From Sutterella seckii (lineage in GTDB: Bacteria > Pseudomonadota > Gammaproteobacteria > Burkholderiales > Burkholderiaceae_F), in assembly GCF_009183815.1 (NCBI RefSeq), contig NZ_WEHX01000011.1, positions 1 to 30,000 of the forward strand: 30,000 nt of DNA, written 5' to 3'. Positions within the stretch are counted from its first letter, which is position 1, and every line of letters begins with the position of its first letter. Position numbers and translations under genes: made by a program. Below the pieces are notes generated by a model. It did not search any database. It saw nothing but the letters and a program-made list of their open reading frames with translations, and was not told the origin of the DNA. Of this stretch, positions 2,505-20,614 are shown one piece after another.

Positions 2505-2553
2505 ATCGATATCCTGTCTGAAAGAGAGAGTGTGAAGCTCCGAAGATTGAGCG

Positions 2554-3772
2554 TCAGGCGGCCTCGCTTTCAATGAGCGCTTCCGCCCGGCGGCTTCGCC
2601 AGGCAATGAAGCAGGCAAGCACGACGCCGACTGCGGCTATGACGACATCAAAGCGGAAGATGGAGAGAATGGAATCGTTTCTCGCAATCCAGGCCGTGAT
2701 CAGCGGAATCGTGAAGTTGGAAATGCTGCCCGCACTATAGTAGATGCCCGTGGCTTTCCCCTTGGCAGACGGAAACTGAGCGGCCAGAAGCGTGAGGCCG
2801 AGCTGCAGGACGCCGCCCGCCGCAAAGAATCCGAAGACGAAGGCGAAAATCGTGACAAAGAGTGAAGTGGGCCAGAGCGTCACGACAAGAAACGAGAGGA
2901 AGCTCATGAACGTGCAGATGAGGAGCATCTCGCGGGGCTTCAGGAACGTCTTGAGGGCGAGCGACGAGAGAAAGACGCCGCAGATCGAGCCCGTCGTATA
3001 GATGGAAAGAAGCTGGAGCGACGATTCGAAATTCATGCCGGCAACCTGTTCGCCGTACTGCGCGAGCCACTGGCTCACGAGGTAGAAGGTCGCCATGGCG
3101 ACGTAGCCGAAAAGCGTATAGCTCACGAAATCGGGGATCGCAATGCTTTCGGACCCATCCTTCGCGTCGTCATTCTTCCCGCCCGCGGCATGGGCCCTCT
3201 TCCGGAGCCCCGCCGGCTGCGAGGGGCGCCATGCGGAAGAGAATGATGAAGTTGACGGCGAGCACTGCCGCCGCAGCGATGAAGGACCAGCCGTACCAGA
3301 GGTTCAAAGCAGCAAGAACGCTCACGACGAGCGGCAGCACGAACTGGCCGGAGGCCACGAAGGCCTTGATGAGAATGACCGCAAGCCCGGGCGAGTCGGG
3401 AAAGAGCTCCATGAGCTTCGGGTAGGTGCCGGCGTCGAGAAGGCTGTTGGCGCAGCCCGCGAGGAAGCCGAAAACGTAGGCAATCGTGAGGTCGCGCGTG
3501 AAGAGATGCCCGATGAAGAAGGCCATGTAGACGGCGATGCCCCCGAGCACGAAGGGCTTTCTGCCCCAGCGGTCAGAGAGCGTTCCCGCGATGTAGAGAA
3601 GCGCGAAGCGGCCGAGGCCGAGAGATGAAATGACCACCGAAACGCCCGCCGCATCGGTACTCCACTGCACCTCGAGCGAATGCATGTTGAGGCTGATGAT
3701 CAGCACGCCGATGCCGTGCACCATGTAGTTGAGGTACAGGCAAAAAGCGGTGAAGTACCGGCTGACTGGCAT
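2554..3772 (-). pseudogene. ydiM: YdiM-like MFS transporter, split into two frames by a 1-nt frameshift (or sequence error)
   Basis: ORFs 3170..3772(-) and 2554..3126(-) are the N- and C-terminal halves of one 12-TM MFS protein. Both match remembered E. coli YdiM ('LNYMVHGIGVLIISLNM', 'AYVFGFLAGCANSLLDAGTYP', 'SYTLFGYVAMATFYLVSQWLAQYG', 'AKGKATGIYYSAGSI.NFTIPLITA'). They are also paralogous to the intact MFS at 11195..12442. The C-terminal frame stays open upstream through the N-terminal frame stop at 3170-3172. Removing one C from the CCCC run at 3208-3211 joins the two halves. Confidence 0.7.
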
Positions 3773-4249
3773 TCCTTACTCCCTAATTCATCCTTGGAGA
3801 TTTCCTGGGGGGCCTCTCTTTCCATCGGATGCAGGAAGCGCTCGCGTCTTCAGAATTCCGGTCGAACGAAGCAGAATAGTTATGAAGGAGAAATACGCAT
3901 GCTCTAAGTCAGACGCATCTCGTCCCAGCCAGATAATTCTCGGGAATTAAGCCCTTTCCCAACACCTCCGACCTTGCAAATCCGAAAAATTATTCTGCAC
4001 AAAAATACCTACTTCGGAATGCATGAAAAATGTTGCCGGCTCGCCATTAATGAGTGATAAAAATTAGGGAAAATGAATTAGTTAAAAAGAACGACCTGAA
4101 GCCTCTCCGGGCGTTTCCCGGAAATGGTGCGCGATTATCGTGCAGGGACCCGGGACAATTCGGCTTTACGCCCCAAGCAGTCTGCACAACCCATGCATGG
4201 GCTTTGCATCCGGCGCCTTTTTTTGCTCCCGGGCGAATCGGAACCATAG

Positions 4250-4304
4250 AAAAAAACAGGCACCCGATGCGCCTCAAAGGAGTGAAAAGACGCAGCGGGT
4301 GCCT
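4250..4304 (-). terminator. Probable rho-independent terminator downstream of fadK
   Basis: On the minus strand a 9-bp stem (4296-4304 pairs with 4258-4266, extended by 4291-4294/4268-4271) is followed by G plus a T7 run (plus-strand A7 at 4250-4256). It lies about 75 nt past the fadK stop codon. Confidence 0.45.
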
Positions 4305-4379
4305 CAGACGATCCCGGAAGCATTCCGGTTTCAGGAGAGAAAAGAATCGGTACTTATTTGCTCGGAGCGGCGCTCCCGC

Positions 4380-6044
4380 TCAGTCGGAAGCCATGCCTTT
4401 ACTGAGGCGCGCAATGATGTCGCGCTTTAATTCAAACTTGCGCACCTTGCCCGAGGCGGTGCGCGGGAGTTCCGGGACGACGACGAGATATTCCGGGAAC
4501 TTGTATTTGGCGACGCGGCGGGCGTCGAAGAAGGCGACGATGTCCCGGAGCGCGAGCTTCAGGGCGCCGGGCTTTTCCACCACATAGGCGCAGGTGCGCT
4601 CGCCCAAACGGTCGTCGGGCATCGCCACCACTGCCGCCGCTTTGATCGACGGATGCTCCATCAGGATGTCCTCGACCTCGCGGCTCGAGATGTTCTCGCC
4701 GCCCCGCACGATGATGTCCTTCCGGCGGCCGGTGATCTTGATGTAGCTTCCGGTATCGTCCGTGCGGCAGAGGTCGCCCGAGTAGTACCAGCCGTCGGCG
4801 TCGAGCGCCCGGGCGGTGATTTCGGGCTCGCCCAGGTACCCCACGAACACATTGGGGCCGCGCGAAGCCTCCTCGCCCTCTGCTCCCGCCGGCACCTCAT
4901 GGTGCTCGGCGTCGACCACGCGGATTTCAACCCCCGGCACGGCGCAGCCGTCGGTAAGTTCCGTGTGCGCGCGCGTGTCGTCGGGCTTCACGACCGAATG
5001 GGGAGAACTTTCGGTGGAGCCGTAAACCGAGAAGAGCCGGATGCCTAATGTCCTGCATTCGCTGAAGATTTTGGGCGGGATCGTCGTTCCGCCGCAGAGG
5101 AAGAAGCGAAGCGACGAAAGATCGCGCGGCTCCTTCCTGATTTCGGCAAGGATGTCGTAGACGAAGGGCGTGGCGCCGAGAACGCAGGTAATCCGCTCGC
5201 CCTCGATGAGGTCGAGGCATGCGTCCGCCTTGAAGATGTCGAGGAGCACGGATTCGCCGCCGAGAATGAAGGGCAGCGTCACGCCGTGAAGAAACCCCGT
5301 GGCGTGCCCCAGCGGCGCGGGCATGAGGAAGCTGTCGAGCCAGGAAAGCCCGAGCCTCGCGGCATAGGCGCGCTCGCTCGCGAGAATGTTGTTGTGGGTG
5401 AGCATGACGCCCTTCGGGAGTCCCTCGGTCCCGGAGGTAAAGAGCACGGCGGCGAGATCGTCGCCCGAGGTCTTCGCCTCCTCGTCGAGCGGTTCGCTCT
5501 TTTCGAGGATTTCCGAGAGGACTGCAACCTTTTCGTCGCCCCCGAGCCCCTCAGGGAGGCCTTCGAGCTTGTCGACCGCGACCACGGCCGCGAGCTGCGG
5601 GAGCGTCTTCGCGAGCCGCGCCATCATTTCAACGGGCTTCACTTTCTTGAAGGCGGTGGGCGTGAAGACCGCGCGGATCTCGCACTTTTCAAGCGCCCAG
5701 GAGAGCTCCGCCTCGCGCCACGAGGGAAGAATCGGCACCGTCACGGCGCCGAGCTTGAGGCAGGCAATGTAGGCCGCCGTGAATTCGCACCAGCCCGGAA
5801 GATCAATCGCCACGCCGTCGCCCCGGCCGATCCCCTTTGCCTTAAGCCAAGCGGCAAGGCGGGACGCCTGGTCGTCAAACTCCCGGTAGGTGAATGCCGC
5901 GCCGTGGTTGTCGCGGACCGCGCGGCGGTCCGGGCAAGCCAGAACCGCGTGCCGCCACCAGTCGGCAAGCGAGGCGTCGCCCCAGAATCCTTCCTTGCGG
6001 TAAAGCTCGCGCCTTTCCGGGCTGATGTGATACTGAGCATGCAT
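4380..6044 (-). CDS. fadK: Acyl-CoA synthetase (AMP-forming), FadK/YdiD-like
   Basis: ORF 4380..6122(-) trimmed to the ATG at 6042-6044 (554 aa). Long runs match remembered E. coli FadK: 'WGDASLAD.W', 'LAAVLFTSGTEGLPKGVMLTHNNILASERAY', 'MPAPLGHATGFLHGVT.PF', 'YGSTESSPH', 'GWYYSGDLCR', 'ITGR.KDIIVRGGENISSREVEDIL', 'LPRT.SGK'. Confidence 0.9.
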   Translation of the reverse strand: MHAQYHISPERRELYRKEGFWGDASLADWWRHAVLACPDRRAVRDNHGAAFTYREFDDQASRLAAWLKAKGIGRGDGVAIDLPGWCEFTAAYIACLKLGAVTVPILPSWREAELSWALEKCEIRAVFTPTAFKKVKPVEMMARLAKTLPQLAAVVAVDKLEGLPEGLGGDEKVAVLSEILEKSEPLDEEAKTSGDDLAAVLFTSGTEGLPKGVMLTHNNILASERAYAARLGLSWLDSFLMPAPLGHATGFLHGVTLPFILGGESVLLDIFKADACLDLIEGERITCVLGATPFVYDILAEIRKEPRDLSSLRFFLCGGTTIPPKIFSECRTLGIRLFSVYGSTESSPHSVVKPDDTRAHTELTDGCAVPGVEIRVVDAEHHEVPAGAEGEEASRGPNVFVGYLGEPEITARALDADGWYYSGDLCRTDDTGSYIKITGRRKDIIVRGGENISSREVEDILMEHPSIKAAAVVAMPDDRLGERTCAYVVEKPGALKLALRDIVAFFDARRVAKYKFPEYLVVVPELPRTASGKVRKFELKRDIIARLSKGMASD

Positions 6045-6202
6045 GACCGGACTCTCTTCTTGATGCGTATGAGGGTTGAGAATGAAATATCGGGAGGGGA
6101 AAAAGAGGAGAGACCTCCTCAAAAGCGCTGCCGCAGGCAGGGTTTTCGAAGGACTGTCTCTCCTTGATCAGGGCAGGGAATGAATCGTCGCTGCTTTCGG
6201 CA

Positions 6203-6514
6203 TCAGCCGAAGCGGAACTCAACCCCGAAGGTGCCCTGCGGGAATTCCCACTTCTTCAGAATGGTTTCGCCGCAAAGCACGCGGCAGGTGCCGCATTCGA
6301 GACAGCCCGCGCAGTCGAACTGCAGGTTCCCTTCGGCGTCCTCCTTGTAGAGGTTCGCCGGGCAGGCCTTGACGAGCTTTCTGAATTCGCGCCGATCCTC
6401 TTCGGTGACGATGTCCTTCAACACAATGTGCGCGTTCCCTTCGTCGACGAAGAATTTGTCCGTCGAGAGCTTCGCGTCGACATTGACCGGAGCCGTTTCT
6501 TTCTCTTGCGTCAT
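6203..6514 (-). CDS. ydiT: FixX/YdiT ferredoxin-like protein
   Basis: 103 aa with 'ACPANLYK' and 'FDCAGCLECGTCRVLCG'. Its start overlaps the ydiS stop in an ATGA arrangement (6511-6514). Confidence 0.9.
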   Translation of the reverse strand: MTQEKETAPVNVDAKLSTDKFFVDEGNAHIVLKDIVTEEDRREFRKLVKACPANLYKEDAEGNLQFDCAGCLECGTCRVLCGETILKKWEFPQGTFGVEFRFG

Positions 6515-7806
6515 AGCGCTTTCCCCCAGCCGTAGCCGTCCTTGATGAGATTCCAGGCGCCCGCCTGCTTGACGTGCTTCCAGAGCATGGAGCGCACGGG
6601 CGGCACGGGGCTCCCGTCGATGCGGAAGAGGTCGCGCATGATGCCGGCGACGAGTTCCGGATAAACCGTAAAGAGCCGCGGATTTTCAATGAGATGCGGC
6701 ACGTCCTGGTACTGCTTCATGTCGCGGATGACGAAGCTCTTTTCGAGTTCCGTCTGGTAGGAGGCGAGGCCCGCAGCGGAGAAGTCGCCCTTTTCCTTGG
6801 CGGCGATGACCGCCCGGCCCGCGAGTTCGCCCGACGTCACGGCAAGGTCCATGCCGCGAACGATGAAGCCTAAGTTGATGCAGAGGCCCGCAGCGTCGCC
6901 CGTGATCATCACGCCGTCGCCGGCGAGCTTCTTCGGGACCATCGCGTAGCCGCCTTCGGGAACCATGTGCCCGGAGTATTCGACGATCTTTCCGCCCTCA
7001 ATGAGAGGCTTCACGGAAGGATGGTTCTTGAGGTCCTCGAGCATCTGCGGAACGGTCTTTCCGGCCTTTTCGATTTCGCCGAGACCGCAGACGATGCCGA
7101 GGGACACCGTGTCCTCGTTCGTGTAGATGATGCCGCCGCCCATGAGGCCGTCGGAGCAGGAGCCCGCGAAGAGCCAGGCGACGCCTTCGTCGCCCGTGAG
7201 GCCGAAGCGGTCCTCAATCACCTTCTTCGGAAGCTCGATCACTTCCTTCGCGCTCACCGCGTACTGATGCGGCGTGTATTCGGGGAGCATGCCGATCGAC
7301 TTCGCGAGGAGCGAATTGACGCCGTCGGCGAGAATCACGACGTTCGCCTCAAGCTCGTCCTCGCCCGCCTGCACGCCCGTGATGCGGCCCGATTCATCCT
7401 GAAGGAGGCGGTCGACGCGGATGCCGGGAATGAACTGGGCGCCCGCTTCCTCGGCCTTCGACGCAAGCCACTGGTCGAACTTGCCGCGGAGCACCGTATA
7501 GGACTCGGCTTCAGGGGTTTTGGGAGCTGCAGAGTGATAGTCGAGCGTAACCGTATCTTCCTCCGTCATGAAGGAGATTTTCTCGCGGGTCACGCGGCGC
7601 TCGACCGGGGCTTCCTTGGCAAAGCCCGGGATCACGCGCTCGAGGCTGTGCGCATAGAGGCGCCCGCCCGTCATGTTCTTGCTGCCGGGGTAGTTGCCGC
7701 GCTCAATGACGAGAACATCGAGCCCGGCTTTGGCCATGACGTAGGCGGCGGTGGAGCCGGCGATGCCGGCGCCGACCACGATGGCGTCAAATTTTTCTTC
7801 GGACAT
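6511..7806 (-). CDS. ydiS: FixC/YdiS FAD-dependent ETF-quinone-oxidoreductase-like flavoprotein
   Basis: ORF 6511..7860(-) trimmed to the ATG at 7804-7806 (431 aa). It has the 'FDAIVVGAGIAGS' dinucleotide fold, plus 'GGRLYAHSLE', 'VILADGVNS' and 'GDAAGLCINLGF.VRGMDLA', matching remembered YdiS/FixC. Confidence 0.9.
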   Translation of the reverse strand: MSEEKFDAIVVGAGIAGSTAAYVMAKAGLDVLVIERGNYPGSKNMTGGRLYAHSLERVIPGFAKEAPVERRVTREKISFMTEEDTVTLDYHSAAPKTPEAESYTVLRGKFDQWLASKAEEAGAQFIPGIRVDRLLQDESGRITGVQAGEDELEANVVILADGVNSLLAKSIGMLPEYTPHQYAVSAKEVIELPKKVIEDRFGLTGDEGVAWLFAGSCSDGLMGGGIIYTNEDTVSLGIVCGLGEIEKAGKTVPQMLEDLKNHPSVKPLIEGGKIVEYSGHMVPEGGYAMVPKKLAGDGVMITGDAAGLCINLGFIVRGMDLAVTSGELAGRAVIAAKEKGDFSAAGLASYQTELEKSFVIRDMKQYQDVPHLIENPRLFTVYPELVAGIMRDLFRIDGSPVPPVRSMLWKHVKQAGAWNLIKDGYGWGKAL

Positions 7807-7928
7807 GGTTCTTCTGGAGGGGACCCGGGGTACTGCGGCGGGCTGAGCCGAAAGGAGCAATGTGCCCGAGCCCGCCGCACGTTTGGGCCCTACTCGAGGG
7901 AAAGGAGGAGTAAAGGGGAAAAGCGGCT

Positions 7929-7968
7929 GCGTCCGGCCGGATCCGAGGAGAAAGCCCCGGCCGGACGC
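7929..7968 (-). other. Intercistronic GC-rich stem-loop between ydiR and ydiS (attenuator or mRNA-stability element)
   Basis: A perfect 12-bp stem, gcgtccggccgg (7929-7940) pairing with ccggccggacgc (7957-7968), encloses a 16-nt loop. It sits 20 nt past the ydiR stop. On the minus strand it is followed by a T/C-rich stretch (agccgcttttcccctttactcc). Confidence 0.5.
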
Positions 7969-7987
7969 TCTACTTCAGTGAGACGCC

Positions 7988-8916
7988 TCAGGAGAGCGCC
8001 TTGGTGAGTTCGGGGAGAACCTTGTAGATGTCGCCCACGATGCCGTAGTCGCAGTAGTTGAAGATCGGCGCGTTCTTGTCCTTGTTGACCGCAATGATCG
8101 TGCCGCAGTCGTTGACGCCGACCATGTGCTGAATCTGACCGGAGATGCCGAGCGCAACGTAGACGTCGCCCTTGAGGAGCACGCCCGAAACGCCGATGTA
8201 GCGTTCGCGCTCCATCCAGTGTTCGCCTTCGGCGATCGGACGCGAGCACCCGACTTCGGCGCCGATCGCCTTCGCGAGCGCGTCGGCAAGCGCGAGATCC
8301 GCTTCCTTGGCGATGCCGCGGCCGACGCCGACACGCGCTTCGCCTTCGTGAGGTCGACGGCGCTCTGGGCCTTGGCGCGGCGTTCCTTCACCACGAGGGC
8401 GTTGGCGGGCGCGACGTAGGCAACCTTCGTGACGGCGAGGTCGGCGGAGGATTCGGCAGCTTCAGGCGCAAAGACGCCGCCCGAAACCGTGACCACCGCA
8501 TTGGCGGAGAGAACCTTTTCGGTGCCGACCGCGAGGCCGCCGTAGGTGCAGAACGTAACGCGCAGGCCGTCGGCGGCAGGATTCAGGGAAAGCGCGTCGT
8601 TGACGAGGGCGGCGCCGAGCTTCTGAGAAAGCGCGGCGGCAAAGGCCTTGGAGCGCTTCGTCACGTCGAGAAGAACGAGATTGCCTTCGCCCGCAATGAC
8701 GGCGGCGAGGCTCGCGGCGTAGTTTTCAACGCAGCTCTCGGCGGCGACGTCGAGGTTGTAGACCGCATCCGGGCCGGAGGCGCGCAACGCCTGGACGCCC
8801 GCTTCGGAAACGACGACGGCATTCACCTTCGCGCCCGTCTTCTTCGCGCCGGTAATGAGATCGGCATAACGGTCAGCCGCATCAGCGAAGACCCAAACAG
8901 TATTGATCTGCTTCAT
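7988..8916 (-). pseudogene. ydiR: FixB/YdiR electron-transfer flavoprotein alpha subunit, interrupted by a 1-nt deletion (or sequence error)
   Basis: ORF 7975..8916(-) is EtfA-like up to '...[11 protein letters not shown]', then becomes an Arg/Ser-rich out-of-frame tail. The authentic C-terminus ('[13 protein letters not shown]...[31 protein letters not shown]...[11 protein letters not shown]...[25 protein letters not shown]') is in the frame of ORF 7988..8215(-). That frame is open upstream to the junction at about 8330-8334. Remembered E. coli YdiR reads 'KAKRVVGVGRG' there, which implies GTGGTC became GTGTC. Confidence 0.8.
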
Positions 8917-8943
8917 GATGTTTTTCTCCTGCGATGCGCTGGA

Positions 8944-9708
8944 TTAGTTGAAAAGGCCCTTGATCTTCTGAGCGAACTCGGCGACGACTTCAGGCGAATC
9001 GCCTTCGACGACGTCGTGAGCGCGCTGCTTCGTCGGCGGAACGACGACCGATTCGAGCTCTGCGACCGGAGCCGGAGCGCTCCAGGAGACATCGGCCGCG
9101 CCGAGCGCCTTCGTGGGCTTCCTGCCGGCGCCGAGAATGGCCTTCATGGTCGGGATGCGCGGCGTATTGATGTCGCTCGTCACGCAGACGGCTGCGGGGA
9201 GCGGGAGCTCGATCACCTCGACTTCGTTTTCAAGCGAACGTTCAACGAGAACCTTGTCGCCCGCCTTTTCAATCTTGCTCACGGCATTGACGCAGGGGAT
9301 GCCGAGAAGGCCCGCGGTGAGAAGACCCACCTGCTGGGCGTAAAGGTCGCCCGAGCCTTCGCCGAAGACGAGGAGATCAAAGCCGGTCGTCTTCACGGCA
9401 GCGGCGATCGCGGAGGCCGTGACGTCGGGGAGCGCCCCTTCAAAGGCCGCGTCCTTCACGAGAACGAGTTCGGAGGGACCGCGGGAAAGGACGTCCTTTC
9501 TGAGCTTCGTATTCTCAAGATACTTGCCGCCCACGGAGAGGGCGGTGACCGTGTCGCCGTCGGCGGCGAGGACAACGCCGGCTTCGATGCCGTTCAGGTC
9601 GAACTGACTGATCTTCGCTTCGGCGCGATCAAAATTCAGCTTGCTGTCGGGCGTCACGACGATGTCTTGCTCTTCCGGCACAACCTTGAAGCAAGTAACG
9701 ATATGCAT
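8944..9708 (-). CDS. ydiQ: FixA/YdiQ electron-transfer flavoprotein beta subunit
   Basis: ORF 8944..9738(-) trimmed to the ATG at 9706-9708 (254 aa). Matching runs: 'IVTCFKVVPEEQDIVVTP', 'AKISQFDLN.IEA', 'RKDVLSRGP', 'FGEGSGDLYAQQVGLL', 'CVTSDIN.PRIP.MKAILGAG.KP'. It ends 27 nt upstream of ydiR, which has an AGGAG Shine-Dalgarno. Confidence 0.9.
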   Translation of the reverse strand: MHIVTCFKVVPEEQDIVVTPDSKLNFDRAEAKISQFDLNGIEAGVVLAADGDTVTALSVGGKYLENTKLRKDVLSRGPSELVLVKDAAFEGALPDVTASAIAAAVKTTGFDLLVFGEGSGDLYAQQVGLLTAGLLGIPCVNAVSKIEKAGDKVLVERSLENEVEVIELPLPAAVCVTSDINTPRIPTMKAILGAGRKPTKALGAADVSWSAPAPVAELESVVVPPTKQRAHDVVEGDSPEVVAEFAQKIKGLFN

Positions 9709-11194
9709 AATGACTCCTTCGTTATTTGATGTGTGCATGAGGGCCGGCTGGGTATATATCTGAAAATATGTCAGAGACCTTTTCAGCGGTCATGCGGAAT
9801 ATCAGGAATAAAGATCTGGAATGAGCGCTTTTATTCGTTCTTTCGAATTAAGTCCCTCAAGCTGTGCACATATTGCCGGCTTAATTAAAAAGCCGCGAGA
9901 TGGTTACTTGCTTTTCATTTAAATAATTATGCAGAGCCCGGCGGGGTCCATATATAACCCTGGGCCGATAAATCTTTCCTCAGCCCTTATTCCGCATGGG
10001 ATTAAGGCGCTTTTTCGAGGGGCATGCTGAAGGTCTCCTTTGTCTGCCAGATCGTTCAGAAGACTTTCGCCGCTATTCGGCGCCTCAAAAAGCCCGGCGA
10101 ATCGCCCCGGGAGATCAGATGAATCGATGATTATTCATAAAATTCATGTCATTGCCATCCATGCGGAGGACTCCTCACCCTCCCCGGCGACGCCATTCCG
10201 AGGCGTCCGCATCCCCTGCATTTCCGGTTCCGGGAAGCGCCCGCAGCAAGATTGATCACCCTGCCTGCAGGATTATTGAAGGCCCGCGGGAGCCTTTCGG
10301 GATGCGTACGGCAAGGAGATTTCAGAACACAATTCAATGTTTTATAAGAAATAATTGATCTGCTCCGCGAGGAAGCCCACTGAGATTTCCGCTTCCCGGC
10401 CCATGTGCGGCGCTCTTTTGGAAAGCTTTCTCTGCTTTTCCGGATGCCGCTATCGACCCCGGAACGCTTTTTTCCCCGCTCCCCGGACAATGAGATGCAG
10501 CTTTGTTGAAAACACCCTTTTCGAGGGCAGGGAGGCTCGCCCGGATTCTCCGGCGGCGGCTCCCCTTATATATAGGGCGGCGCCCGGACCGCATCTTCTT
10601 GAGCGGCCCTTCAGGCGCCGTCATCAACGATCATTCTCTATTTTTCAATGAATTAGGCCAATGTGAGCGATCGCTCGCCTCTGCGCGGAAAGCGCACCGG
10701 CCGGCGTCCGCGCCCCTGGTTCAGCACCCTCATTTCCGCCCTTCCGGAAGCCCCTCAAAAAGGCCTTCCGACCCAGCTTCCGGGGTCGGGGAAAGCGAAA
10801 AATTCTGCAGCCCATGCAGGATTGTCCCGGCGGAGAAGCAAAAAACCACTGTTCAGTCATCCGGGCTTTTTGAGTTTCCCGAAAGCATTTTCCCCAATCA
10901 TCAGAGAGATATCGCTTTTAGGCACCAAACGAAAAGCGTCGGGTCCCTGCATCATTCTTGAGAATTAAAACACCAAATTGCATTCGTTTTCATTCGCCCG
11001 CTTTCGATAATGACTCTCGTCCAATGGAACTAAATCGATAGTTGCAGACAGCAAAATAAATCAGTCAAGTTCCTGCCGGAGAAAGTTTCTAATTCAGAAA
11101 TATTTTTATTTCTCCTGACAGCTGCTTCACGATTAAAAGCAAATATTAAAAAAGATTTTTTAATGCCTGCAGCTTTCTCAACCGGAGAAAACCC

Positions 11195-12442
11195 ATGAGT
11201 CAATCACCAGCCGGGCCGTCGAAAGGCACGTCCTTCATGCTCGCAGCGATAGGCATTTACCTGAGCTACTTCCTGCACGGCGCGAGCGTCATCGCGCTTG
11301 CGCAGAACATGACTTCTCTTGCCGAGAAGTTCGCCACCGACAGCGCAGGCATCGCCTACCTGATTTCGGGCATCGGCCTCGGCCGCCTCGTCACGATCCT
11401 CTTCTTCGGCGCGCTCTCGGACAAGTTCGGCCGCCGCGCGATGATTCTCCTCGGAATCATCCTCTACATGATCTTCTTCTTCGGGATCCCCTACAGCCCC
11501 AACCTGATGGTCGCCTTCTGCCTCGCCTTTGCGGTGGGCGCAGCCAACTCCGCGATCGACACGGGCGGCTATCCGGCCCTGATTGAATGCTTCCCGAAGG
11601 CCTCGAGCTCGGCCGTGATTCTGCTCAAAGCCATGGTTTCCTTCGGCCAGATGCTCTATCCGATGGCGGTGAGCTTCCTCATGGTCTCGAGCCTCTGGTA
11701 CGGCTACGCCTTCATTGTGCCCGGCATCATCTTCGTCCTCATCACGCTTCTCGTCCTCAAGTGCCGCTTCCCGAGCCAGGCCGTCGACGCCGCGGTCCTC
11801 AAGGATCTGCCGCAGATGCGCCAGCAGCCCTCCTACTGGGGCGAAGGCCTCATGGCCGTGATCTTCGGCGTCGCCGCATTCTCGACCTTCTACGTGATTG
11901 CCGTCTGGATGCCGCGCTACGCCATGGCCTTCGGCGGGATGTCGGAATCGGAATCCCTCACGACGATCTCCTACTACAGCATCGGTTCGCTCGTCTGCGT
12001 CTTCGCTTTCGCCTACCTCCTGAAGTCGAAGGTCCGTCCGGTCTGGGCAATGGTTCTCAACAGCCTCATCGCCTGCATCGCCTCGCTCGTTCTCTTCCTC
12101 TACCCGACGCCGCTCATCTGCAAGGCGGGCGCCTTCCTGATCGGCTTCTCCGCCGCGGGCGGCATCCTGCAGCTCGGCGTTGCGGTGATGGCTGAGTTCT
12201 TCCCGAAGAGCAAGGCGAAGGTGACCTCGGTCTACATGATGATGGGAGGCCTCGCAAACTTCGTGATCCCGCTCGCCACCGGCTACCTCTCGCAGATCAG
12301 CATCAAGTACATCATCCTCCTCGATTTTGGCCTGGCTGTTCTCACGCTCCTCACGTCGCTCTACCTCTTCCGCCGCTACTACGCGATCTTCTCGATCCCG
12401 GCGAAGGACGTCCGCTTCGGCGAAGCGCGCTTCATCAAATAA
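11195..12442 (+). CDS. ydiN: YdiN-like MFS transporter
   Basis: 415 aa with GGAG 8 nt upstream of the ATG. Long runs match remembered E. coli YdiN: 'YFLHG.SVI.LAQNM.SLAEKF.TD.AGIAYLISGIGLGRL', 'GGYPAL.ECFPKAS.SAVIL.KAMVSFGQM', 'FGVAAFSTFYVI.VWMP.YAMAF.GMSE', 'GFSAAGGILQLGV.VM.EFFPKSKAKVTS.YMMMGGLANFVIPL.TGYLS'. Confidence 0.9.
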   Translation: MSQSPAGPSKGTSFMLAAIGIYLSYFLHGASVIALAQNMTSLAEKFATDSAGIAYLISGIGLGRLVTILFFGALSDKFGRRAMILLGIILYMIFFFGIPYSPNLMVAFCLAFAVGAANSAIDTGGYPALIECFPKASSSAVILLKAMVSFGQMLYPMAVSFLMVSSLWYGYAFIVPGIIFVLITLLVLKCRFPSQAVDAAVLKDLPQMRQQPSYWGEGLMAVIFGVAAFSTFYVIAVWMPRYAMAFGGMSESESLTTISYYSIGSLVCVFAFAYLLKSKVRPVWAMVLNSLIACIASLVLFLYPTPLICKAGAFLIGFSAAGGILQLGVAVMAEFFPKSKAKVTSVYMMMGGLANFVIPLATGYLSQISIKYIILLDFGLAVLTLLTSLYLFRRYYAIFSIPAKDVRFGEARFIK

Positions 12443-12615
12443 ACCGTTTTCCTTAATCAACCCAACAGGCTTTTGCGGAAAGAGAGGGGAACCTTCCCCG
12501 CTCTTCCCCGGGAGCCAGAAATCCCCGGGCGCTCCGCCTCCTCGACCCGATTCCAGGGGCCGGACACCCGATCTCCAAATCTTCCGCATTTCCTAGATAT
12601 TTGAAGGAGTCAAAA

Positions 12616-13479
12616 ATGGAAGTCACCGCTAAGTACGAGCTCATCGGCCTCATGGCTTACCCGATCCGTCACAGCCTCTCGCCGACGATGCAGAACCGCG
12701 CTCTCGACAAGCTCGGCCTTCCCTACTGCTACATGGCCTTCGAGGTCGACAACGCCTCCTTCCCGGATGCCATCAAGGGCCTTCGCGCTCTGAAGATGCG
12801 CGGCTCGGGCGTCTCGATGCCGAACAAGCAGCTCGCCATCCAGTTCATGGACGAACTCGCCCCGGCCGCCAAGCTCGCCGGCGCCATCAACACGATCGTG
12901 AACGACAACGGCTACCTGAAGGGCTACAACACCGACGGCACGGGCCACATCCGCGCCATTAAGGAAACCGGCTTCGACGTCAAGGGCAAGACCATGGTCC
13001 TCGTCGGTGCGGGCGGCGCCGCCACCGCCATCGGCGCCCAGGCTGCCGTTGAAGGCTTCAAGGAAATCAAGCTCTTCAACCGCAAGGACGAATTCTGGGA
13101 AGGCGCCCACGCCTTTACGAAGCGCGTGAACGACAACTCCGACTGCCGCGTCACGGTCTGCGACCTCGACGATGAGAAGCTCTTCGGCGACGCCATCGCC
13201 GGCGCCGACGTTCTCACGAACGCCACCAAGGTCGGCATGAAGCCGCTCCACGAGCTCTCCGTCATCAAGGACGTCTCGATGCTCCGCCCGGACCTCCTCG
13301 TTTCCGAATGCGTCTACAACCCGCACATCACGAAGCTCCTCGAGCAGGCTCAGGCTGCGGGCTGCAAGACCGTCGACGGCTACGGCATGCTCCTCTGGCA
13401 GGGCTATGAACAGTTCAAGCTCTGGACCGGCGAAGACTTCCCGATCGAATACATCCGCGAATCGATGGGCTTCAAGTAA
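12616..13479 (+). CDS. ydiB: Quinate/shikimate dehydrogenase (NAD(P)-dependent), YdiB type
   Basis: ORF 12601..13479 trimmed to the ATG at 12616, which has GAAGGAG at 12603-12609. 287 aa. Matching runs: '[21 protein letters not shown]', '[10 protein letters not shown]', '[27 protein letters not shown]', 'GKTMVL.GAGGA.TAIGAQ', 'ECVYNPH.TKLL', '[19 protein letters not shown]'. These are nearly collinear with remembered E. coli YdiB. Confidence 0.92.
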
Positions 13480-13587
13480 TCCGCCGACTCTCCTGCCGGG
13501 CGGCAACTTCTCCAGCTCCGCCCGGCGGGGAGCGCGGTTTCCCGCCAAGCATCGTATTCTTAGTTTCTCCTCTCTCCGGATTCAGAA

Positions 13588-14346
13588 ATGCAGACTGTTC
13601 AGATTAAAAACGTTACCCTGGGCGAAGGCGCCCCGAAGATCATCGTCTCCCTGATGGCGAAGGACATTGCCGCCGTCAAGAGCGAAGCCCTCGCCTACCG
13701 CTCCGCCGACTTCGACATCCTCGAATGGCGCGGCGACCACTTCACGGCCATCGCCGACACGGCCGCGGCGCTTGACGCCCTGCGCGAACTCCGCGCGGTC
13801 TTCCCCGACAAGCCCATCCTCTTCACGTTCCGCAGCAAGAAGGAAGGCGGCGAACAGGAAATCGCTCCCGAAGCCTACATTGCGCTCAACATCGCCATGG
13901 CTGAAAGCGGCCTCGTCGACGCGATCGACCTCGAGCTCTTCACGGGCGACGCCCTCGTCTCCCAGACCATCGCCCGCGCGCATGCGAAGGGCGTGAAGGT
14001 CATCATGTCGAACCACGACTTCCACAAGACCCCGGCGAAGGAAGAGATCGTCAAGCGCCTCACGAAGATGCAGGAACTCGGCGCCGACGTGCCCAAGATC
14101 GCGCTCATGCCCGAATCCAAGGCCGACGTCCTCACGGTTCTCGCCGCCACCCTCGAAGTTTCCGAGAAGATTGCCGACCGTCCGATCATCACGATGTCGA
14201 TGTCTAAGACCGGCGTCATCTCCCGCCTCGCCGGCGAAGTCTTCGGTTCCGCCGCCACCTTCGGCGCCGTCCAGAAGGCCTCCGCCCCCGGCCAGATCTC
14301 CGTGACCGACCTCCGCACGGTCCTCTCGATCATTCACGCGGCTTAA
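13588..14346 (+). CDS. aroD: 3-dehydroquinate dehydratase, type I (cytoplasmic)
   Basis: 252 aa. Matching runs: '[14 protein letters not shown]', 'ADFDILEWR', 'FTFRS.KEGGEQ', 'IDLELFTGD', 'SNHDFHKTP' (catalytic His), 'PKIALMP' (Schiff-base Lys), '[46 protein letters not shown]'. There is no signal peptide. Confidence 0.93.
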
Positions 14347-14599
14347 TTTCAGCCCGCCCCGCGCTCCCCGGCGTTCTTGTCGCCGGGACGCGGACCGCGC
14401 CCGCAGGAGGGAAGTTCTTCCCCGCGGGCCCGCCTGATCGATTTTTGAAAACCTCCAGCACTCTGCAGCGCCCTCAAAAGCGCCGCAGCCGGGTCCCCTC
14501 GCGCCCGAAAAAGGCCGGGACGGATCCGAACACCCAAAATTTTCGAGCAAAGCGTCCGCAGGGTTCTCCCGGTGCGGGCAGCTCAATCCGGAGAATTCC

Positions 14600-16192
14600 A
14601 TGCAGATTGCAAAACCCAAGCGCATCAACGGCCGCGTGCCCGTCATGTCCGCCGAAGAGGCCGTGACCTACATTCCTGATGAAGCCACGCTCTGCGTTCT
14701 CGGCGCCGGCGGCGGCATTCTTGAAGCGACGAAGCTCATCGAAGCCCTCGCCGAACGCTACAAGACCACGCAGACCCCGAAGAACCTCGGCATCATCAGC
14801 CCGACGGGCCTCGGCGACCGCGCCGAGCGCGGCATCAGCCCGATCGCTCAGGAAGGCCTCGTCAAGTGGGCGCTCTGCGGCCACTGGGGACAGTCGCCCC
14901 GCATTTCCGAGCTCGCCGAGCAGAACAAGATCTCTGCCTGGAACTATCCGCAGGGCGTCCTCACGCAGATGCTCCGCGCATCGGCCGCCCACCAACCCGG
15001 CATCATCTCGGAAATCGGCCTCGGCACCTTCGTCGATCCGCGCAACCAGGGCGGCAAATTGAACGACGTGACGAAGGAAGACCTGATCAAGCTCGTCAAC
15101 ATCGAAGACAAGGAATACCTCTACTACAAGTCGGTTCCGCCCAATGTCGCCTTCATCCGCGCCACGACCTGCGACAGCGAAGGCTATGCGACCTTTGAGG
15201 ACGAGGTGATGTACCTCGACGCCCTCGTCATCGCCGAAGCCGTTCACAACAACGGCGGCATCGTGATGATGCAGGTTCAGAAGATGGTGAAGAAGGCGAT
15301 CCTTCATCCGAAGAACGTCCGCATCCCGGGCTACCTCGTCGACATCGTCGTCGTCGACCCGCAGCAGACGCAGCTCTACGGCGGCGCGCCGGTGAACCGC
15401 TTCATCTCGGGCGACTTCACGCTCGACGATTCCGAACGCGTCAAGATTCCGCTCAACCAGCGCAAGGTCGTCGCCCGCCGCGCTCTCTATGAAATGAAGA
15501 AGCAGGCGATCGGCAACGTCGGCGTCGGCATTGCCGACGGCATCGGCCTCGTCGCCCGCGAGGAAGGCTGCGACGAAGACTTCGTCCTCACCGTTGAGAC
15601 GGGCCCGATCGGCGGCATCACGACGCAGGGCGTCGCCTTCGGCGCGAACGTCAACACCCGCGCCATTCTCGACATGACCGCGCAGTTCGACTTCTACCAC
15701 GGCGGCGGCCTCGACGTCTGCTACCTCTCCTTTGCCGAAGTCGACAAGGAAGGCAACGTCAACGTCCACAAGTTCAACGGCAAGATCATGGGCACGGGCG
15801 GCTTCATCGACATCAGCGCCACCTCGAAGAAGATCGTCTTCTGCGGCACGCTCACCGCGGGCGGCCTCAGGACCGAAGTCGGCGACGGCAAGCTCACGAT
15901 CACCCAGGAAGGGCGCGTCACGAAGTTCGTCGACCATCTCCCGGAAATCACGTTCTCGGGCAAGGTCGCCCTCGAACGCGGCCTCGACGTCCGCTACGTC
16001 ACCGAACGCGCGGTCTTCACGCTCAAGGCTGACGGCCTCCACCTCGTCGAAGTTGCTCCGGGCGTCGACATCGAGCGCGACATCGTCGCGAAGATGGGCT
16101 TCAAGCCCGTGATCGACAAGAATCTGAAGCAAATGGACGCCTGCATCTTCACCGATGCCGTCATGGGCTTCAAGCTCCCCGACGCTGAATAA
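14600..16192 (+). CDS. ydiF: Family I acyl-CoA:carboxylate CoA-transferase (fused alpha/beta), YdiF type
   Basis: 530 aa with GGAG 7 nt upstream. Runs match remembered E. coli YdiF: 'RINGRVPV', 'IPDEATLCVLGAGGGILEAT', 'GLVKWALCGHWGQSPRIS', 'TTCDSEGYATFEDEVMYLDALVIA', 'VHNNGGIVMMQVQKMVKKA', 'FNGKIMGTGGFIDISATSKKI.FCGTLTAG'. Confidence 0.93.
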   Translation: MQIAKPKRINGRVPVMSAEEAVTYIPDEATLCVLGAGGGILEATKLIEALAERYKTTQTPKNLGIISPTGLGDRAERGISPIAQEGLVKWALCGHWGQSPRISELAEQNKISAWNYPQGVLTQMLRASAAHQPGIISEIGLGTFVDPRNQGGKLNDVTKEDLIKLVNIEDKEYLYYKSVPPNVAFIRATTCDSEGYATFEDEVMYLDALVIAEAVHNNGGIVMMQVQKMVKKAILHPKNVRIPGYLVDIVVVDPQQTQLYGGAPVNRFISGDFTLDDSERVKIPLNQRKVVARRALYEMKKQAIGNVGVGIADGIGLVAREEGCDEDFVLTVETGPIGGITTQGVAFGANVNTRAILDMTAQFDFYHGGGLDVCYLSFAEVDKEGNVNVHKFNGKIMGTGGFIDISATSKKIVFCGTLTAGGLRTEVGDGKLTITQEGRVTKFVDHLPEITFSGKVALERGLDVRYVTERAVFTLKADGLHLVEVAPGVDIERDIVAKMGFKPVIDKNLKQMDACIFTDAVMGFKLPDAE

Positions 16193-16239
16193 CCCCTTTC
16201 CAAATTCCCAAACCTTTCCCACTTCAAGGAAAAGAGAAA

Positions 16240-17394
16240 ATGGCTATCGATTTTTCGCTCACCGAAGAGCAGGAGCTGCTCCTTGCCTCCATCCGCGAAC
16301 TCATCACGACCGAGTTCCCTGAAGAGTACTGGCGCACCCACGACGAAACGAGCACCTACCCGCGCGAATTCATGAAGGCGCTCGCCGAAAACGGCATCTC
16401 GATGCTCGGCGTCCCTGAAGAATTCGGCGGCATCCCCGCCGACTACGTGACGCAGATGCTCGCCCTCATGGAAGTCGCCAAGTGCGGCGCCCCGGCGTTC
16501 CTCCTCACGAACGGCCAGTGCATCCACTCGATGCTCCGCTTCGGCTCGCCCGAGCAGCTGAAGAAAACCGCTGAAAGCACGGCTGCCACGGGCGACCCCG
16601 CCTACTCGCTCGCCCTCACGGAACCGGGCGCCGGCAGCGACAGCAACGCCACCGCCACGACCTTCACGCGCCGCGACGGCAAGATCTACCTCAACGGCCA
16701 GAAGACCTTCATCACGGGCGCTGCCGAATATCCGTACATGCTCGTCATCGCCCGCGATCCCGAGCAGCAGGATCCGAAGAAGGCCTTCTCCCTCTTCTGG
16801 GTCGACGCGAAGAAGCCCGGCATCAAGGTGAATCCCCTTCACAAGATCGGCTGGCACCTCGTGAGCACCTGCGAGGTGTACCTCGACAACGTCGAGGTTG
16901 AGGAATCCGACATGGTGGGCGAGGAAGGCAAAGGCTTCCTCAACGTCATGTACAACTTCGAAATGGAGCGCCTCATCAACGCCGCCCGCTGCACGGGCTT
17001 TGCGGAATGCGCCTTCGAGGACGCCGCCCGCTACGCCAACCAGCGCATCGCGTTCGGTCAGCCGATCGGCTTCAACCAGATGATCCAGGAAAAGCTCGCC
17101 CTCATGGCCGTCAAGTGCAAGAACATGCGCAACATGGTTCTGCAGACTGCCTGGCAGGCGGACCGCAAGGAGTCGCTGCGCGTGACGTCGTCGCTCGCGA
17201 AGCTCTACTGCGCCCGCACGGCGCTTGAAGTGATCGACGATGCGATCCAGATCATGGGCGGCCTCGGCTACACGAACGACGCCCGCGTCTCCCGCCTCTG
17301 GCGCGACGTCCGCTGCGAACGCATCGGCGGCGGCACGGACGAAATCATGATCTACATCGCCGGCCGTCAGATCCTGAAGGCCTACCGCGAATAA
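16240..17394 (+). CDS. ydiO: Acyl-CoA dehydrogenase family protein (putative enoyl-CoA reductase), YdiO type
   Basis: 384 aa. Matching runs: 'DFSLTEEQELLLASIRELITT', 'GISMLGVPEEFGGIPADYVTQMLALMEV', 'LTEPGAGSD', 'FLNVMYNFEMERLINAAR', 'RCERIGGGTDEIMIY'. The protein is CaiA-like overall. Confidence 0.93.
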   Translation: MAIDFSLTEEQELLLASIRELITTEFPEEYWRTHDETSTYPREFMKALAENGISMLGVPEEFGGIPADYVTQMLALMEVAKCGAPAFLLTNGQCIHSMLRFGSPEQLKKTAESTAATGDPAYSLALTEPGAGSDSNATATTFTRRDGKIYLNGQKTFITGAAEYPYMLVIARDPEQQDPKKAFSLFWVDAKKPGIKVNPLHKIGWHLVSTCEVYLDNVEVEESDMVGEEGKGFLNVMYNFEMERLINAARCTGFAECAFEDAARYANQRIAFGQPIGFNQMIQEKLALMAVKCKNMRNMVLQTAWQADRKESLRVTSSLAKLYCARTALEVIDDAIQIMGGLGYTNDARVSRLWRDVRCERIGGGTDEIMIYIAGRQILKAYRE

Positions 17395-17429
17395 TCCTGA
17401 TGTTCTGAACCTTCAGAACTGCGCTTTGC

Positions 17430-17468
17430 GCTCCGGAATCGTCCTGACAACGGTTCCGGAGCGTTTTT
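17430..17468 (+). terminator. Rho-independent terminator after ydiO
   Basis: Stem gctccggaa (17430-17438) pairs with ttccggagc (17454-17462) and is followed by gTTTTT (17463-17468). Confidence 0.6.
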
Positions 17469-17660: not shown

Positions 17661-18077
17661 ATGTCCCGTCTTTTCACGAACTCCGCCCTTTCCACCTCCT
17701 TCGGCCTCCTCTTTCTCCGCATCGCGCTTGCAGGGAGCCTCCTCACGCACGGCATCGCCAAAATCGAGAATTTCTCGGCGCTATCCAACTCCTTCCCGGA
17801 TCCCTTCGGGACGGAGCATCTGACAGCGCTTCTTCTTGCCATCTTCGCCGAAGTCGTCTGCTCGATCTTCGTCCTCATCGGTCTCTGGACGCGCGCCGCG
17901 CTCATTCCGCTCATCTGCACCTTCCTCACGATTGCCTTCGTGGTGCTCGCCGGAAAGGACTTCGGCGCTCGCGAAATGCCGCTCCTCTATCTCTTCGGCT
18001 TCGCGACGCTCTTCTTCACGGGCGCGGGCAGCTTCTCGCTCTCTGGGCTCACCAGGGCTGCTGCCAGGAAAGCCTGA
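17661..18077 (+). CDS. DoxX-family integral membrane protein
   Basis: 138 aa with four hydrophobic segments. The N-terminal 'FGLLFLRIALAGSLLTHGIAK' is typical of DoxX/DoxD-like proteins. Confidence 0.75.
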   Translation: MSRLFTNSALSTSFGLLFLRIALAGSLLTHGIAKIENFSALSNSFPDPFGTEHLTALLLAIFAEVVCSIFVLIGLWTRAALIPLICTFLTIAFVVLAGKDFGAREMPLLYLFGFATLFFTGAGSFSLSGLTRAAARKA

Positions 18078-18097
18078 TTTCCTCCCGCGTAATACGC

Positions 18098-18150
18098 AAG
18101 AGAAGCGCCGCAGGTTCTCATTCCTGCGGCGCTTCTCTTCTTTTGGTTTT
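18098..18150 (+). terminator. Rho-independent terminator after the DoxX gene
   Basis: A perfect 17-bp stem (18098-18114 aagagaagcgccgcagg pairing with 18123-18139 cctgcggcgcttctctt) encloses an 8-nt loop. It is followed by cttttggtttt. Confidence 0.8.
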
Positions 18151-18215
18151 CAGGAAGCAGCCTCATCCTATGCCGGGTTTGAGGCGGGTTCCTTTCAAGC
18201 GACCTCTGAGCGCAA

Positions 18216-20066: not shown

Positions 20067-20614
20067 AGTAATTCTCTCCATTTGGTGGTATTTCTGTTTT
20101 CAGCTCTTTTGGACGCTTTCAAAGCGCCTCCCGGCTGTGGAGAGGAGTTTAAGACATTTACCCTAGATCTCTATTCGGAAAAGTCCCAACTTCAGTTCAT
20201 GCTCACGGCGTGATTTTTGTGGTTCATAGGTTTACAGCCGCTTCCTGGAAAATCTAAAGCACAACTTCTTATTGTTTTATATGGAATAAGTGTTAGTAAA
20301 TGGCCAATGCAACAAATATTCTCATGAGGAATAATCACTATTCCTGACATTCCGACGGTTTAAAGATCGACCAGTGCGCGGATCCGAACAGGTTTGCTTC
20401 CGGCAGATCCCGCCCGCTTCTTGATTTTTGTATTTCGCTTTCAATGAAGGAAGCCTCCCTCGGGCGAGGCATGCATACCGCATCTCTTATGTCAGCGGGC
20501 GAAAGCACTGCAATGGCAGCCCTCTGATTACAAACGCTTTAATTCCGCTCGTACACCTGTGGTAATTTCGAGGAACCGATCCTTTTCTCTTATCTTTCTT
20601 CTCCCGACGAACTC

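Follow-up and report, generated by a model that had tools for sequence, protein, structure and literature searches.

A divergent ydi locus in Sutterella seckii and a possible CoA-dependent pathway for hydroaromatic acids

Described relatives and layout of the locus

The 30,000-nucleotide stretch of Sutterella seckii DNA analysed here (positions 1–30,000 of contig NZ_WEHX01000011.1; the window) contains a set of twelve genes whose closest described counterpart is the ydi locus of Escherichia coli K-12. Some eight of the E. coli genes (ydiF, ydiO, ydiQRST, fadK, and ydiP) have been without a physiological role for decades, and their use in engineering assumes a fatty-acid function. Two described systems are assembled from a similar list of parts. 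The caiTABCDE/fixABCX system of E. coli converts carnitine to γ-butyrobetaine by means of a transporter, a priming ligase, a coenzyme A (CoA)-transferase, a dehydratase, and a reductase of the acyl-CoA dehydrogenase type that is fed by an electron-transferring flavoprotein (ETF) and FixCX. The CarABCDE system of Acetobacterium woodii, which performs caffeyl-CoA reduction, also combines a ligase, a CoA-transferase, an acyl-CoA dehydrogenase-type reductase, and an ETF, and uses an unsaturated aromatic-derived acid as an electron sink. The Car system operates by electron bifurcation with ferredoxin.

Two further comparisons concern shikimate itself. In the cyclohexanecarboxyl-CoA pathway of Streptomyces and Alicyclobacillus, according to a reference cited in PMC13304725, shikimate is converted to shikimoyl-CoA and flavin adenine dinucleotide (FAD) enzymes act at the thioester level. 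Cyclohexanecarboxyl-CoA biosynthesis includes a shikimoyl-CoA synthetase and an FAD-dependent dehydratase (Skyrud et al. 2020, cited in PMC13304725), so that CoA-level shikimate chemistry has a precedent. Periplasmic reductases with FAD_binding_2 and FMN_bind domains, including a shikimate-induced enzyme of Eggerthella lenta, carry out the overall reduction of the shikimate enoate as a form of respiration. Sutterella wadsworthensis and E. lenta both reduce the enoate of shikimate to hydroshikimate with a gain in growth, and the RNA-seq data of that study cover E. lenta and H. filiformis only (Little et al., 10.1101/2022.12.26.521950).

Genes in the window were identified from open reading frames (ORFs), Pfam and NCBIfam scans, and tblastn searches with E. 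coli K-12 proteins. Orthologues of all 12 E. coli ydi-locus genes were found at 1617–17394, with protein identities ranging from 50% (YdiP) to 83–84% (YdiF and YdiO). Pfam domains were consistent with the assignment for every locus protein, and NCBIfam equivalog or subfamily models were passed by FadK, YdiS, YdiQ, YdiB, AroD, and YdiO. The genes named in an earlier note on this DNA were thus all located, although the range given there, 4380–17394, holds ten of them, and the ydiM-like transporter and ydiP-like AraC genes lie outside it (1617–3772). Two divergent units are present, as the note had described. The minus strand carries ydiQ-ydiR-ydiS-ydiT-fadK, then the ydiM-like gene for a major facilitator superfamily (MFS) transporter and the ydiP-like AraC gene, and the plus strand carries ydiN-ydiB-aroD-ydiF-ydiO. 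The divergent order of S. wadsworthensis is identical, whereas the colinear E. coli order was not found: here ydiQRST-fadK is inverted and ydiM-ydiP come after fadK. The host also differs from E. coli: it is a betaproteobacterium of the gut, and shikimate respiration is known from its relative S. wadsworthensis. The window, part of a Sutterella-like genome, has a G+C content of 60%. Megablast with the locus as query, run on 5,426 E. coli genomes, gave no DNA-level match, and the comparison was therefore made at the protein level. Among species-representative genomes, the best YdiF match was that of S. wadsworthensis DSM 14016 (92%), followed by about 50 Enterobacterales species at 79–84% and, after a gap, by Firmicutes at about 60%.

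In the plus-strand unit, the MFS transporter gene ydiN (11195–12442; 69% identity to E. coli YdiN), encoding a proposed hydroaromatic-acid carrier, is followed by ydiB and aroD. The product of ydiB (12616–13479) is an NAD-type quinate/shikimate dehydrogenase with 75% identity to YdiB (NCBIfam equivalog, 547 bits against a cut-off of 349), and that of aroD (13588–14346) is a type I 3-dehydroquinate dehydratase with 71% identity to AroD (NCBIfam, 254/139 bits; Pfam DHquinase_I, 246 bits). Residues K71, N92, and D107 of YdiB and the catalytic residues E86, H143, K170, and R213 of AroD are retained, as is the catalytic glutamate of YdiF, which we take to be E333 in the numbering of its structure paper. 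The presence of ydiB and aroD with these catalytic residues, adjoining a transporter gene, is the combination by which we recognised hydroaromatic utilisation. No domain of the dehydroshikimate dehydratase/protocatechuate branch of the classical aerobic qui/qsu route was found among the locus proteins with Pfam or NCBIfam; CoA and ETF enzymes take its place downstream. The fused family I CoA-transferase encoded by ydiF (14600–16192) is 83% identical to E. coli YdiF and matches the structure of that protein (PDB 2AHU) with 1014 bits. The last gene, ydiO (16240–17394), encodes an acyl-CoA dehydrogenase family protein and proposed enoyl-CoA reductase with 84% identity to YdiO (PRK12341, 720/537 bits). 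Its structure matches included no close solved structure; CarC (6FAH chain C) scored 166 bits.

The minus-strand unit begins with the genes of the electron-transfer proteins. The EtfB-like subunit YdiQ (8944–9708) is 61% identical to its E. coli counterpart (PRK12342, 375/338 bits), and the EtfA-like subunit YdiR (7988–8916) matches E. coli YdiR in two frames (43% and 72%) that are separated by a one-nucleotide deletion near 8331. They are followed by YdiS (6511–7806), a flavoprotein resembling FixC and ETF-quinone oxidoreductase (65% to YdiS; PRK10015, 688/466 bits), and by the FixX-like ferredoxin-type protein YdiT (6203–6514; 61% to YdiT), the start of ydiT overlapping the stop of ydiS. The AMP-forming acyl-CoA ligase FadK (4380–6044) is 62% identical to E. 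coli FadK and scored 822 bits with the NCBIfam model PRK06087 (cut-off 736). Its second-best curated family is cyclohexanecarboxylate-CoA ligase (439 bits, under the cut-off of that model), which may be taken as a mild hint of alicyclic substrates. Beyond fadK lie the ydiM-like MFS transporter gene (2554–3772), which matches E. coli YdiM as two high-scoring segment pairs in different reading frames (64% and 56%), and the gene of the ydiP-like AraC-family regulator (1617–2504; 50% to E. coli YdiP; Pfam AraC_binding, Cupin_2, and HTH_18).

Among the described systems other than the ydi locus itself, Cai/Fix is similar in build. YdiQ, YdiR, YdiS, and YdiT are 55%, 45%, 59%, and 57% identical to FixA, FixB, FixC, and FixX, respectively, and YdiO is 47% identical to CaiA. 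Of the NCBIfam Fix models, the FixA subfamily was passed (304/219 bits), while FixC (589/610) and FixX (125/166) were just missed. In contrast to the family III enzyme CaiB, YdiF is a family I CoA-transferase, and blastp searches of the locus proteins against CaiB, CaiD, and CaiT gave no match. There is no crotonase at the locus, where dehydration would instead be performed on the free acid by AroD, and MFS proteins take the place of the BCCT transporter. FadK is just 29% identical to CaiC, and YdiO, which scored 436 bits with the CaiA equivalog model (cut-off 540), is a paralogue rather than an orthologue of CaiA. Since YdiF is unlike CaiB and neither crotonase nor BCCT genes are found, the locus would appear to work like the Cai/Fix system without being a member of it. 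The Car system is distant, as the YdiO–CarC score indicates, and differs in having no FixCX-type membrane or quinone link, dehydroquinase, or shikimate dehydrogenase. The Streptomyces/Alicyclobacillus pathway, likened here by its description, is biosynthetic and multi-step and has no ETF or FixCX. The periplasmic flavin reductases act on the free acid outside the cytoplasm, with no CoA, and are unrelated to YdiF, YdiO, and YdiQRST. The design is not a new kind of machine but a known modular one, here proposed for a substrate class that is new to it.

Proposed route and direction of electron flow

The twelve genes probably form one hydroaromatic-acid unit that acts via CoA thioesters, and this reading is well supported. 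The narrower proposal, that the locus encodes a single cytoplasmic pathway of Cai/Fix-like build for quinate, 3-dehydroquinate (DHQ), 3-dehydroshikimate (DHS), and shikimate, is evenly poised on the evidence of the genes. Shikimate and DHS are cyclohex-1-ene-1-carboxylates, and hence their CoA esters are 2-enoyl-CoAs, in line with the reasoning of the earlier note. In the proposed route, which is the most parsimonious model, YdiN and possibly YdiM would take up the acid across the membrane, and YdiB together with AroD would convert quinate or DHQ to DHS and shikimate, with AroD in the dehydratase role of CaiD. FadK would form the first CoA thioester, after which YdiF would move CoA from the product to the incoming substrate. 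YdiO would then reduce the C1=C2 bond of the cyclohex-1-ene-1-carbonyl-CoA. Its electrons would arrive via YdiQR (ETF) and YdiST (FixCX-like), probably from the menaquinol pool, and the end product would be a dihydroshikimate-type acid that serves as the electron sink. Of the single mechanisms, we favour reduction of the ring double bond by YdiO as an electron sink, with middling confidence. We infer every chemical step from CoA activation onward, as well as the direction of electron flow.

Observations on E. coli bear on the substrate. The ydiN, ydiB, and aroD genes were reported to be jointly up-regulated in a shikimate-overproducing strain under carbon limitation, and deletion of ydiN or ydiB to disturb shikimate metabolism (PMC2672614, PMC4585142, PMC8788726). 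In a shikimate-accumulating aroK aroL strain, ydiQ, ydiR, ydiS, and ydiT were among a few dozen significantly up-regulated genes (PMC4015609). FNR was bound at the ydiP/ydiQ intergenic region (PMC1802558). In the literature, subscription journals aside, we found no report linking ydiF or ydiO to hydroaromatic acids, no CoA-level pathway for shikimate or quinate in the gut, and no Sutterella shikimate reductase.

The same proteins could in principle run in the opposite direction. In an oxidative or salvage pathway, YdiO would dehydrogenate a saturated alicyclic acyl-CoA, for example dihydroshikimoyl-CoA originating from other gut bacteria, and pass the electrons via ETF and YdiST to quinone, while the resulting shikimate or DHS would enter aromatic amino acid synthesis or catabolism. 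Acyl-CoA dehydrogenases associated with an ETF and an ETF-quinone oxidoreductase normally run oxidatively, and YdiS weakly matches the ubiquinone-binding and 4Fe-4S profiles of the latter enzyme. Shikimate kinase-family genes (PF01202, 147 bits) stand beside YdiF homologues in Brevibacillus and Anaerostipes, suggesting a flow into the shikimate pathway, and phenotypes resembling aromatic auxotrophy on shikimate were reported for E. coli ydiN and ydiB deletions (PMC2672614). However, the closest characterised paralogues, CaiA and FixABCX, are reductive under anaerobiosis, and the FNR binding points to anaerobic use. Moreover, S. wadsworthensis reduces shikimate, and the reduced product did not support its growth (10.1101/2022.12.26.521950). 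We regard the oxidative direction as unlikely.

A longer reductive route would proceed to cyclohexanecarboxylate by repeated dehydration and reduction of the ring after CoA activation, with YdiO acting as an FAD-dependent dehydratase and/or reductase. It would account for the cyclohexanecarboxylate that arises from shikimate and quinate in the gut, and it draws on the precedent of the synthetase and the FAD-dependent dehydratase named above (Skyrud et al. 2020, cited in PMC13304725) as well as on the second-best curated family of FadK. On the other hand, the Pfam and NCBIfam scans found a single enzyme of the acyl-CoA dehydrogenase type and no CoA-ester dehydratase at the locus, ETF and FixCX would be superfluous for a pure dehydratase, and the S. 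wadsworthensis product is hydroshikimate, formed by a single reduction (10.1101/2022.12.26.521950). Such a multi-step route is very improbable in our estimation, and a single reduction by YdiO is preferred.

Linkage of the genes in other genomes

The genomic linkage of the hydroaromatic genes to the CoA and ETF genes is tight and recurrent, and, like the gene identities and the intact catalytic residues, it was observed directly. A type I dehydroquinase gene was linked to every inspected ydiO orthologue with at least 74% protein identity, across four gene orders and three G+C regimes. The association of ydiB-aroD with ydiF-ydiO, which the earlier note had pointed out, was borne out by the neighbourhood survey: ydiB, aroD, and ydiF stand alongside ydiO in all 65 loci on contigs from gut and other metagenomes that reach at least 4.5 kb upstream of ydiO, and in about 50 Enterobacterales species, and S. 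wadsworthensis keeps the set. The metagenome scan, made by YdiO alignment, returned relatives of at least 84% identity only and no new gene orders. The four orders are the colinear one of Enterobacterales, the divergent one of Sutterella, and two more in metagenome loci of 42% G+C, namely MFS-ydiF-ydiO-etfB-etfA-ydiB-aroD-fixC-fixX-HAD and MFS-ydiF-ydiO-etfB-etfA-aroD-fixC-fixX-ligase. In both of the latter, aroD (with or without ydiB) lies between etfA and fixC, inside the electron-transfer gene run. Their YdiO homologues show 74–78% identity, neighbouring genes are −4 to 140 bp apart, and active-site residues are preserved.

The negative control consisted of five loci with YdiO-like genes at 60–69% identity: one in an uncultured organism, two of Desulfovibrio type, a paralogous one in E. 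albertii, and one in Moorella. No dehydroquinase or shikimate dehydrogenase gene was present near any of them. These YdiO-like genes were solitary or stood in modules of Cai-like build that comprise ETF, FixCX, a ligase, and a CoA-transferase of family III. Because the dehydroquinase was absent from all five, its linkage is specific to the YdiO/YdiF clade and not to the type of module. A family III CoA-transferase, an MFS transporter, a YdiO/CaiA-like acyl-CoA dehydrogenase, and EtfBA were seen together at four loci (L088–L091), two of which (L088 and L089) additionally have FixCX, a metallo-β-lactamase-fold protein, and an AMP ligase. The occurrence of such Cai-like modules indicates that the same module serves a number of different acids.

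Neighbour-joining trees of YdiF, YdiO, YdiB, and YdiS agreed broadly with one another, as joint evolution of the genes as a unit would predict. In these trees the two Sutterella sequences formed a single clade, the sister group of all Enterobacterales; in the aroD tree, resolution was insufficient to place Sutterella. Owing to this single clade, retention in Sutterella counts as one event and not as independent recurrence. The earlier note had argued for one pathway from the persistence of the gene set in a compositionally very different genome, and that argument is weak for the same reason; what stands of its claim is the functional unit and the tie of the CoA-transferase to hydroaromatic acids. 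The note had also held that a single transfer without independent recurrence of the association would speak against the pathway. The Sutterella copy does go back to one event, yet recurrence is seen in Firmicutes, with a non-homologous type II dehydroquinase.

We collected 29 loci of distant YdiF homologues (57–64% identity, mostly Firmicutes) and clustered them by neighbouring genes. At least one gene of the shikimate-pathway type was present in 21 of the 29; those without one were a Brevibacillus locus, two contigs of very short length, and a distinct sub-branch of five with a different MaoC protein. By our own rough estimate, the chance of a dehydroquinase gene in a random 20-kb stretch is below about 1%. 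The majority operon encodes the YdiF homologue, a MaoC-type enoyl-CoA hydratase, an ApbA/PanE-type reductase, a VOC/glyoxalase-fold protein, and a type II dehydroquinase (Pfam PF01220, 153 bits), and is exemplified by loci L053–L079 (e.g. L066, 9968–13892, and L054, 9102–13940). It is often accompanied by a TRAP transporter and an AraC or LysR regulator. In seven Firmicutes loci, AraC genes whose products are 31–39% identical to YdiP of the window lie divergently upstream of the ydiF homologues. A YdiB homologue is encoded immediately upstream of the operon in Priestia megaterium, and ydiB-MFS-aroD is added near the YdiF homologue in Anaerostipes. As type II dehydroquinase is not homologous to AroD, the dehydroquinase activity was recruited separately in Firmicutes. 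Judging by its genes, the Firmicutes operon looks like an undescribed CoA-dependent route for the degradation of quinate or shikimate. The partners of YdiF, of the hydratase type there and of the acyl-CoA dehydrogenase type here, share 2-enoyl-CoA as the type of substrate, in keeping with the predicted thioester.

Several points weigh against the hydroaromatic reading. A single ancestral cluster probably gave rise to all four proteobacterial gene orders, and part of the aroD retention may be biosynthetic, since aroD is the biosynthetic dehydroquinase gene of E. coli. The transcriptome data from E. coli are correlative. Short acyl-CoAs and acetate serve as substrates of YdiF. In E. lenta, shikimate is acted on by a flavin reductase (10.1101/2022.12.26.521950), and an exported dehydroquinase and a flavin reductase encoded elsewhere in the window (see below) could explain shikimate respiration in Sutterella without the ydi genes. 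FadK was reported to be most active on C6–C8 fatty acids (PMC9329746), and the prevailing annotation of the genes, kept in comparative genomics, is anaerobic fatty-acid β-oxidation (PMC3967523).

The last two points also underlie an alternative in which ydiF-ydiO-ydiQRST-fadK is a module for β-oxidation of short- or medium-chain fatty acids, or its reverse, and ydiN-ydiB-aroD are unrelated hitch-hikers transferred on the same segment. The resemblance of YdiF to Staphylococcus aureus FadX (387 bits, below the cut-off of 750) and the Sutterella copy being a single clade sister to Enterobacterales are in keeping with it. However, the fatty-acid annotation rests on gene proximity to fadK, and a 2022 review noted that experimental evidence is lacking for YdiQR and FadK in fatty-acid degradation and that neither FadR nor CRP controls fadK (PMC9329746). 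Pfam and NCBIfam detected no β-oxidation hydratase, dehydrogenase, or thiolase at the locus. Hitch-hiking also fits poorly with the position of aroD inside the etf–fix run in two other gene orders, the unbroken linkage in the 65 metagenome loci, its loss where YdiO identity falls below about 70%, and the connection of YdiF to a non-homologous dehydroquinase in Firmicutes. We therefore consider this alternative improbable; the content and neighbourhoods of the locus suggest that the orphan ydi genes probably process plant-derived shikimate-type acids and not fatty acids.

On the hydroaromatic reading, a wider proposal can be advanced tentatively and with somewhat less than even confidence. The ydi genes of E. 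coli and its relatives would encode a cytoplasmic, CoA-dependent respiration of shikimate and quinate that is driven by ETF and FixCX, and YdiF-type transferases would mark out a thioester branch of hydroaromatic metabolism that has gone unrecognised. This branch would lead to reduction (YdiO) in Proteobacteria and to hydration and degradation (MaoC, ApbA, VOC, and type II dehydroquinase) in Firmicutes, and Sutterella would possess two parallel routes for these substrates, one cytoplasmic via CoA and the other periplasmic, formed by an exported dehydroquinase and a flavin reductase. If true, the hydroaromatic substrate would reassign the E. coli genes that have lacked a role, name a candidate enzyme system for the shikimate respiration measured in Sutterella, and offer a molecular handle on the gut conversion of dietary quinate and shikimate, which come from coffee, fruit, and chlorogenic acids, to reduced alicyclic acids that then pass to the host. 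The comparative evidence makes both the orphan E. coli genes and the gut respiration directly testable.

Exported dehydroquinase, strain variation, and flanking sequence

A second dehydroquinase gene lies near the far end of the window. This type I paralogue (28992–29912, minus strand; DHquinase_I, 190 bits; 41% identity to E. coli AroD) has a twin-arginine-type leader, its N-terminus reading MQRRHLF...AEA, and belongs to a family of exported dehydroquinase homologues of about 306 amino acids. Directly downstream is the gene of a periplasmic flavin reductase with FMN_bind and FAD_binding_2 domains according to Pfam (27113–28912, minus strand). The pairing is kept in L093 (6001–8818; 49%) and L094 (6001–8818; 76%), and at a third exported-dehydroquinase locus other FAD reductases and a c-type cytochrome are found instead. 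From its composition, the exported pair could plausibly serve in the periplasm as a reductase unit acting on DHQ, DHS, or shikimate, repeating there the scheme of a dehydroquinase with an ene-reductase after it; it is a second candidate for this chemistry, which the earlier note had not picked up. The pair does not adjoin the ydi locus in S. wadsworthensis DSM 14016. A second FAD_binding_2 reductase gene (23816–25219) and a two-component system are located near the pair in the window. Between the two flavin reductase genes, a 421-amino-acid ORF (25508–26773, plus strand) has a protein-like composition and no Pfam match; it is absent at the corresponding place in the related loci L092–L094.

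The break in ydiR, seen by three-frame translation and alignment to L002 and L095–L100, is a change of GG to G near 8331. In the other six contigs of the same species, taken from metagenomes and metagenome-assembled genomes, ydiR is intact (309 amino acids in all six). The closest of these contigs (3.27 Mb) is 99.976% identical over 16.4 kb, with the ydiR deletion as the sole gap. As the deletion is confined to the present assembly, it is either an assembly error or a private mutation, and is probably the former; the frameshift was accordingly rejected as a mark of a decaying locus. The ydiM gene is split in three of the seven contigs (the window, L095, and L098), intact in L096, L099, and L100, and absent from L097, which has lost fadK-ydiM-ydiP and carries DUF3670/SNF2-helicase genes in their place. 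A DUF8276-DUF3670-SNF2 insertion adjoins ydiP in L096 and L100. The core, consisting of ydiN-ydiB-aroD-ydiF-ydiO and ydiQRST, is kept in all contigs of the species.

The divergent intergenic region between ydiQ and ydiN (9709–11194; 1.49 kb), the presumed site of both promoters, is unusually long and has a G+C-rich core at about 10150–10900. It shows no conservation with S. wadsworthensis, its repeats are at chance level, and its ORFs look non-coding. An Rfam scan found no RNA family anywhere in the window, this region included. These analyses revealed neither a hidden gene nor an element at 9709–11194, where no ORF is credible. In a sigma-70 promoter scan, shuffled controls yielded more sites than the actual sequence, and for this organism the scan is uninformative. 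The ydiN-to-ydiO unit is closed by a terminator-like hairpin on the plus strand at 17428–17464 (15-bp stem containing 9 G-C pairs, with a T run after it), and no comparable site was found on that strand between ydiN and ydiO.

The flanks, among them the stretches at 828–1577, 186–680, and 17661–20081, carry genes for rubrerythrin, a MarR-family regulator, a DoxX membrane protein, and a protein that by eye resembles a C69-type dipeptidase. Along with the numerous flavin reductases, these genes suit an anaerobic, Sutterella-like host.

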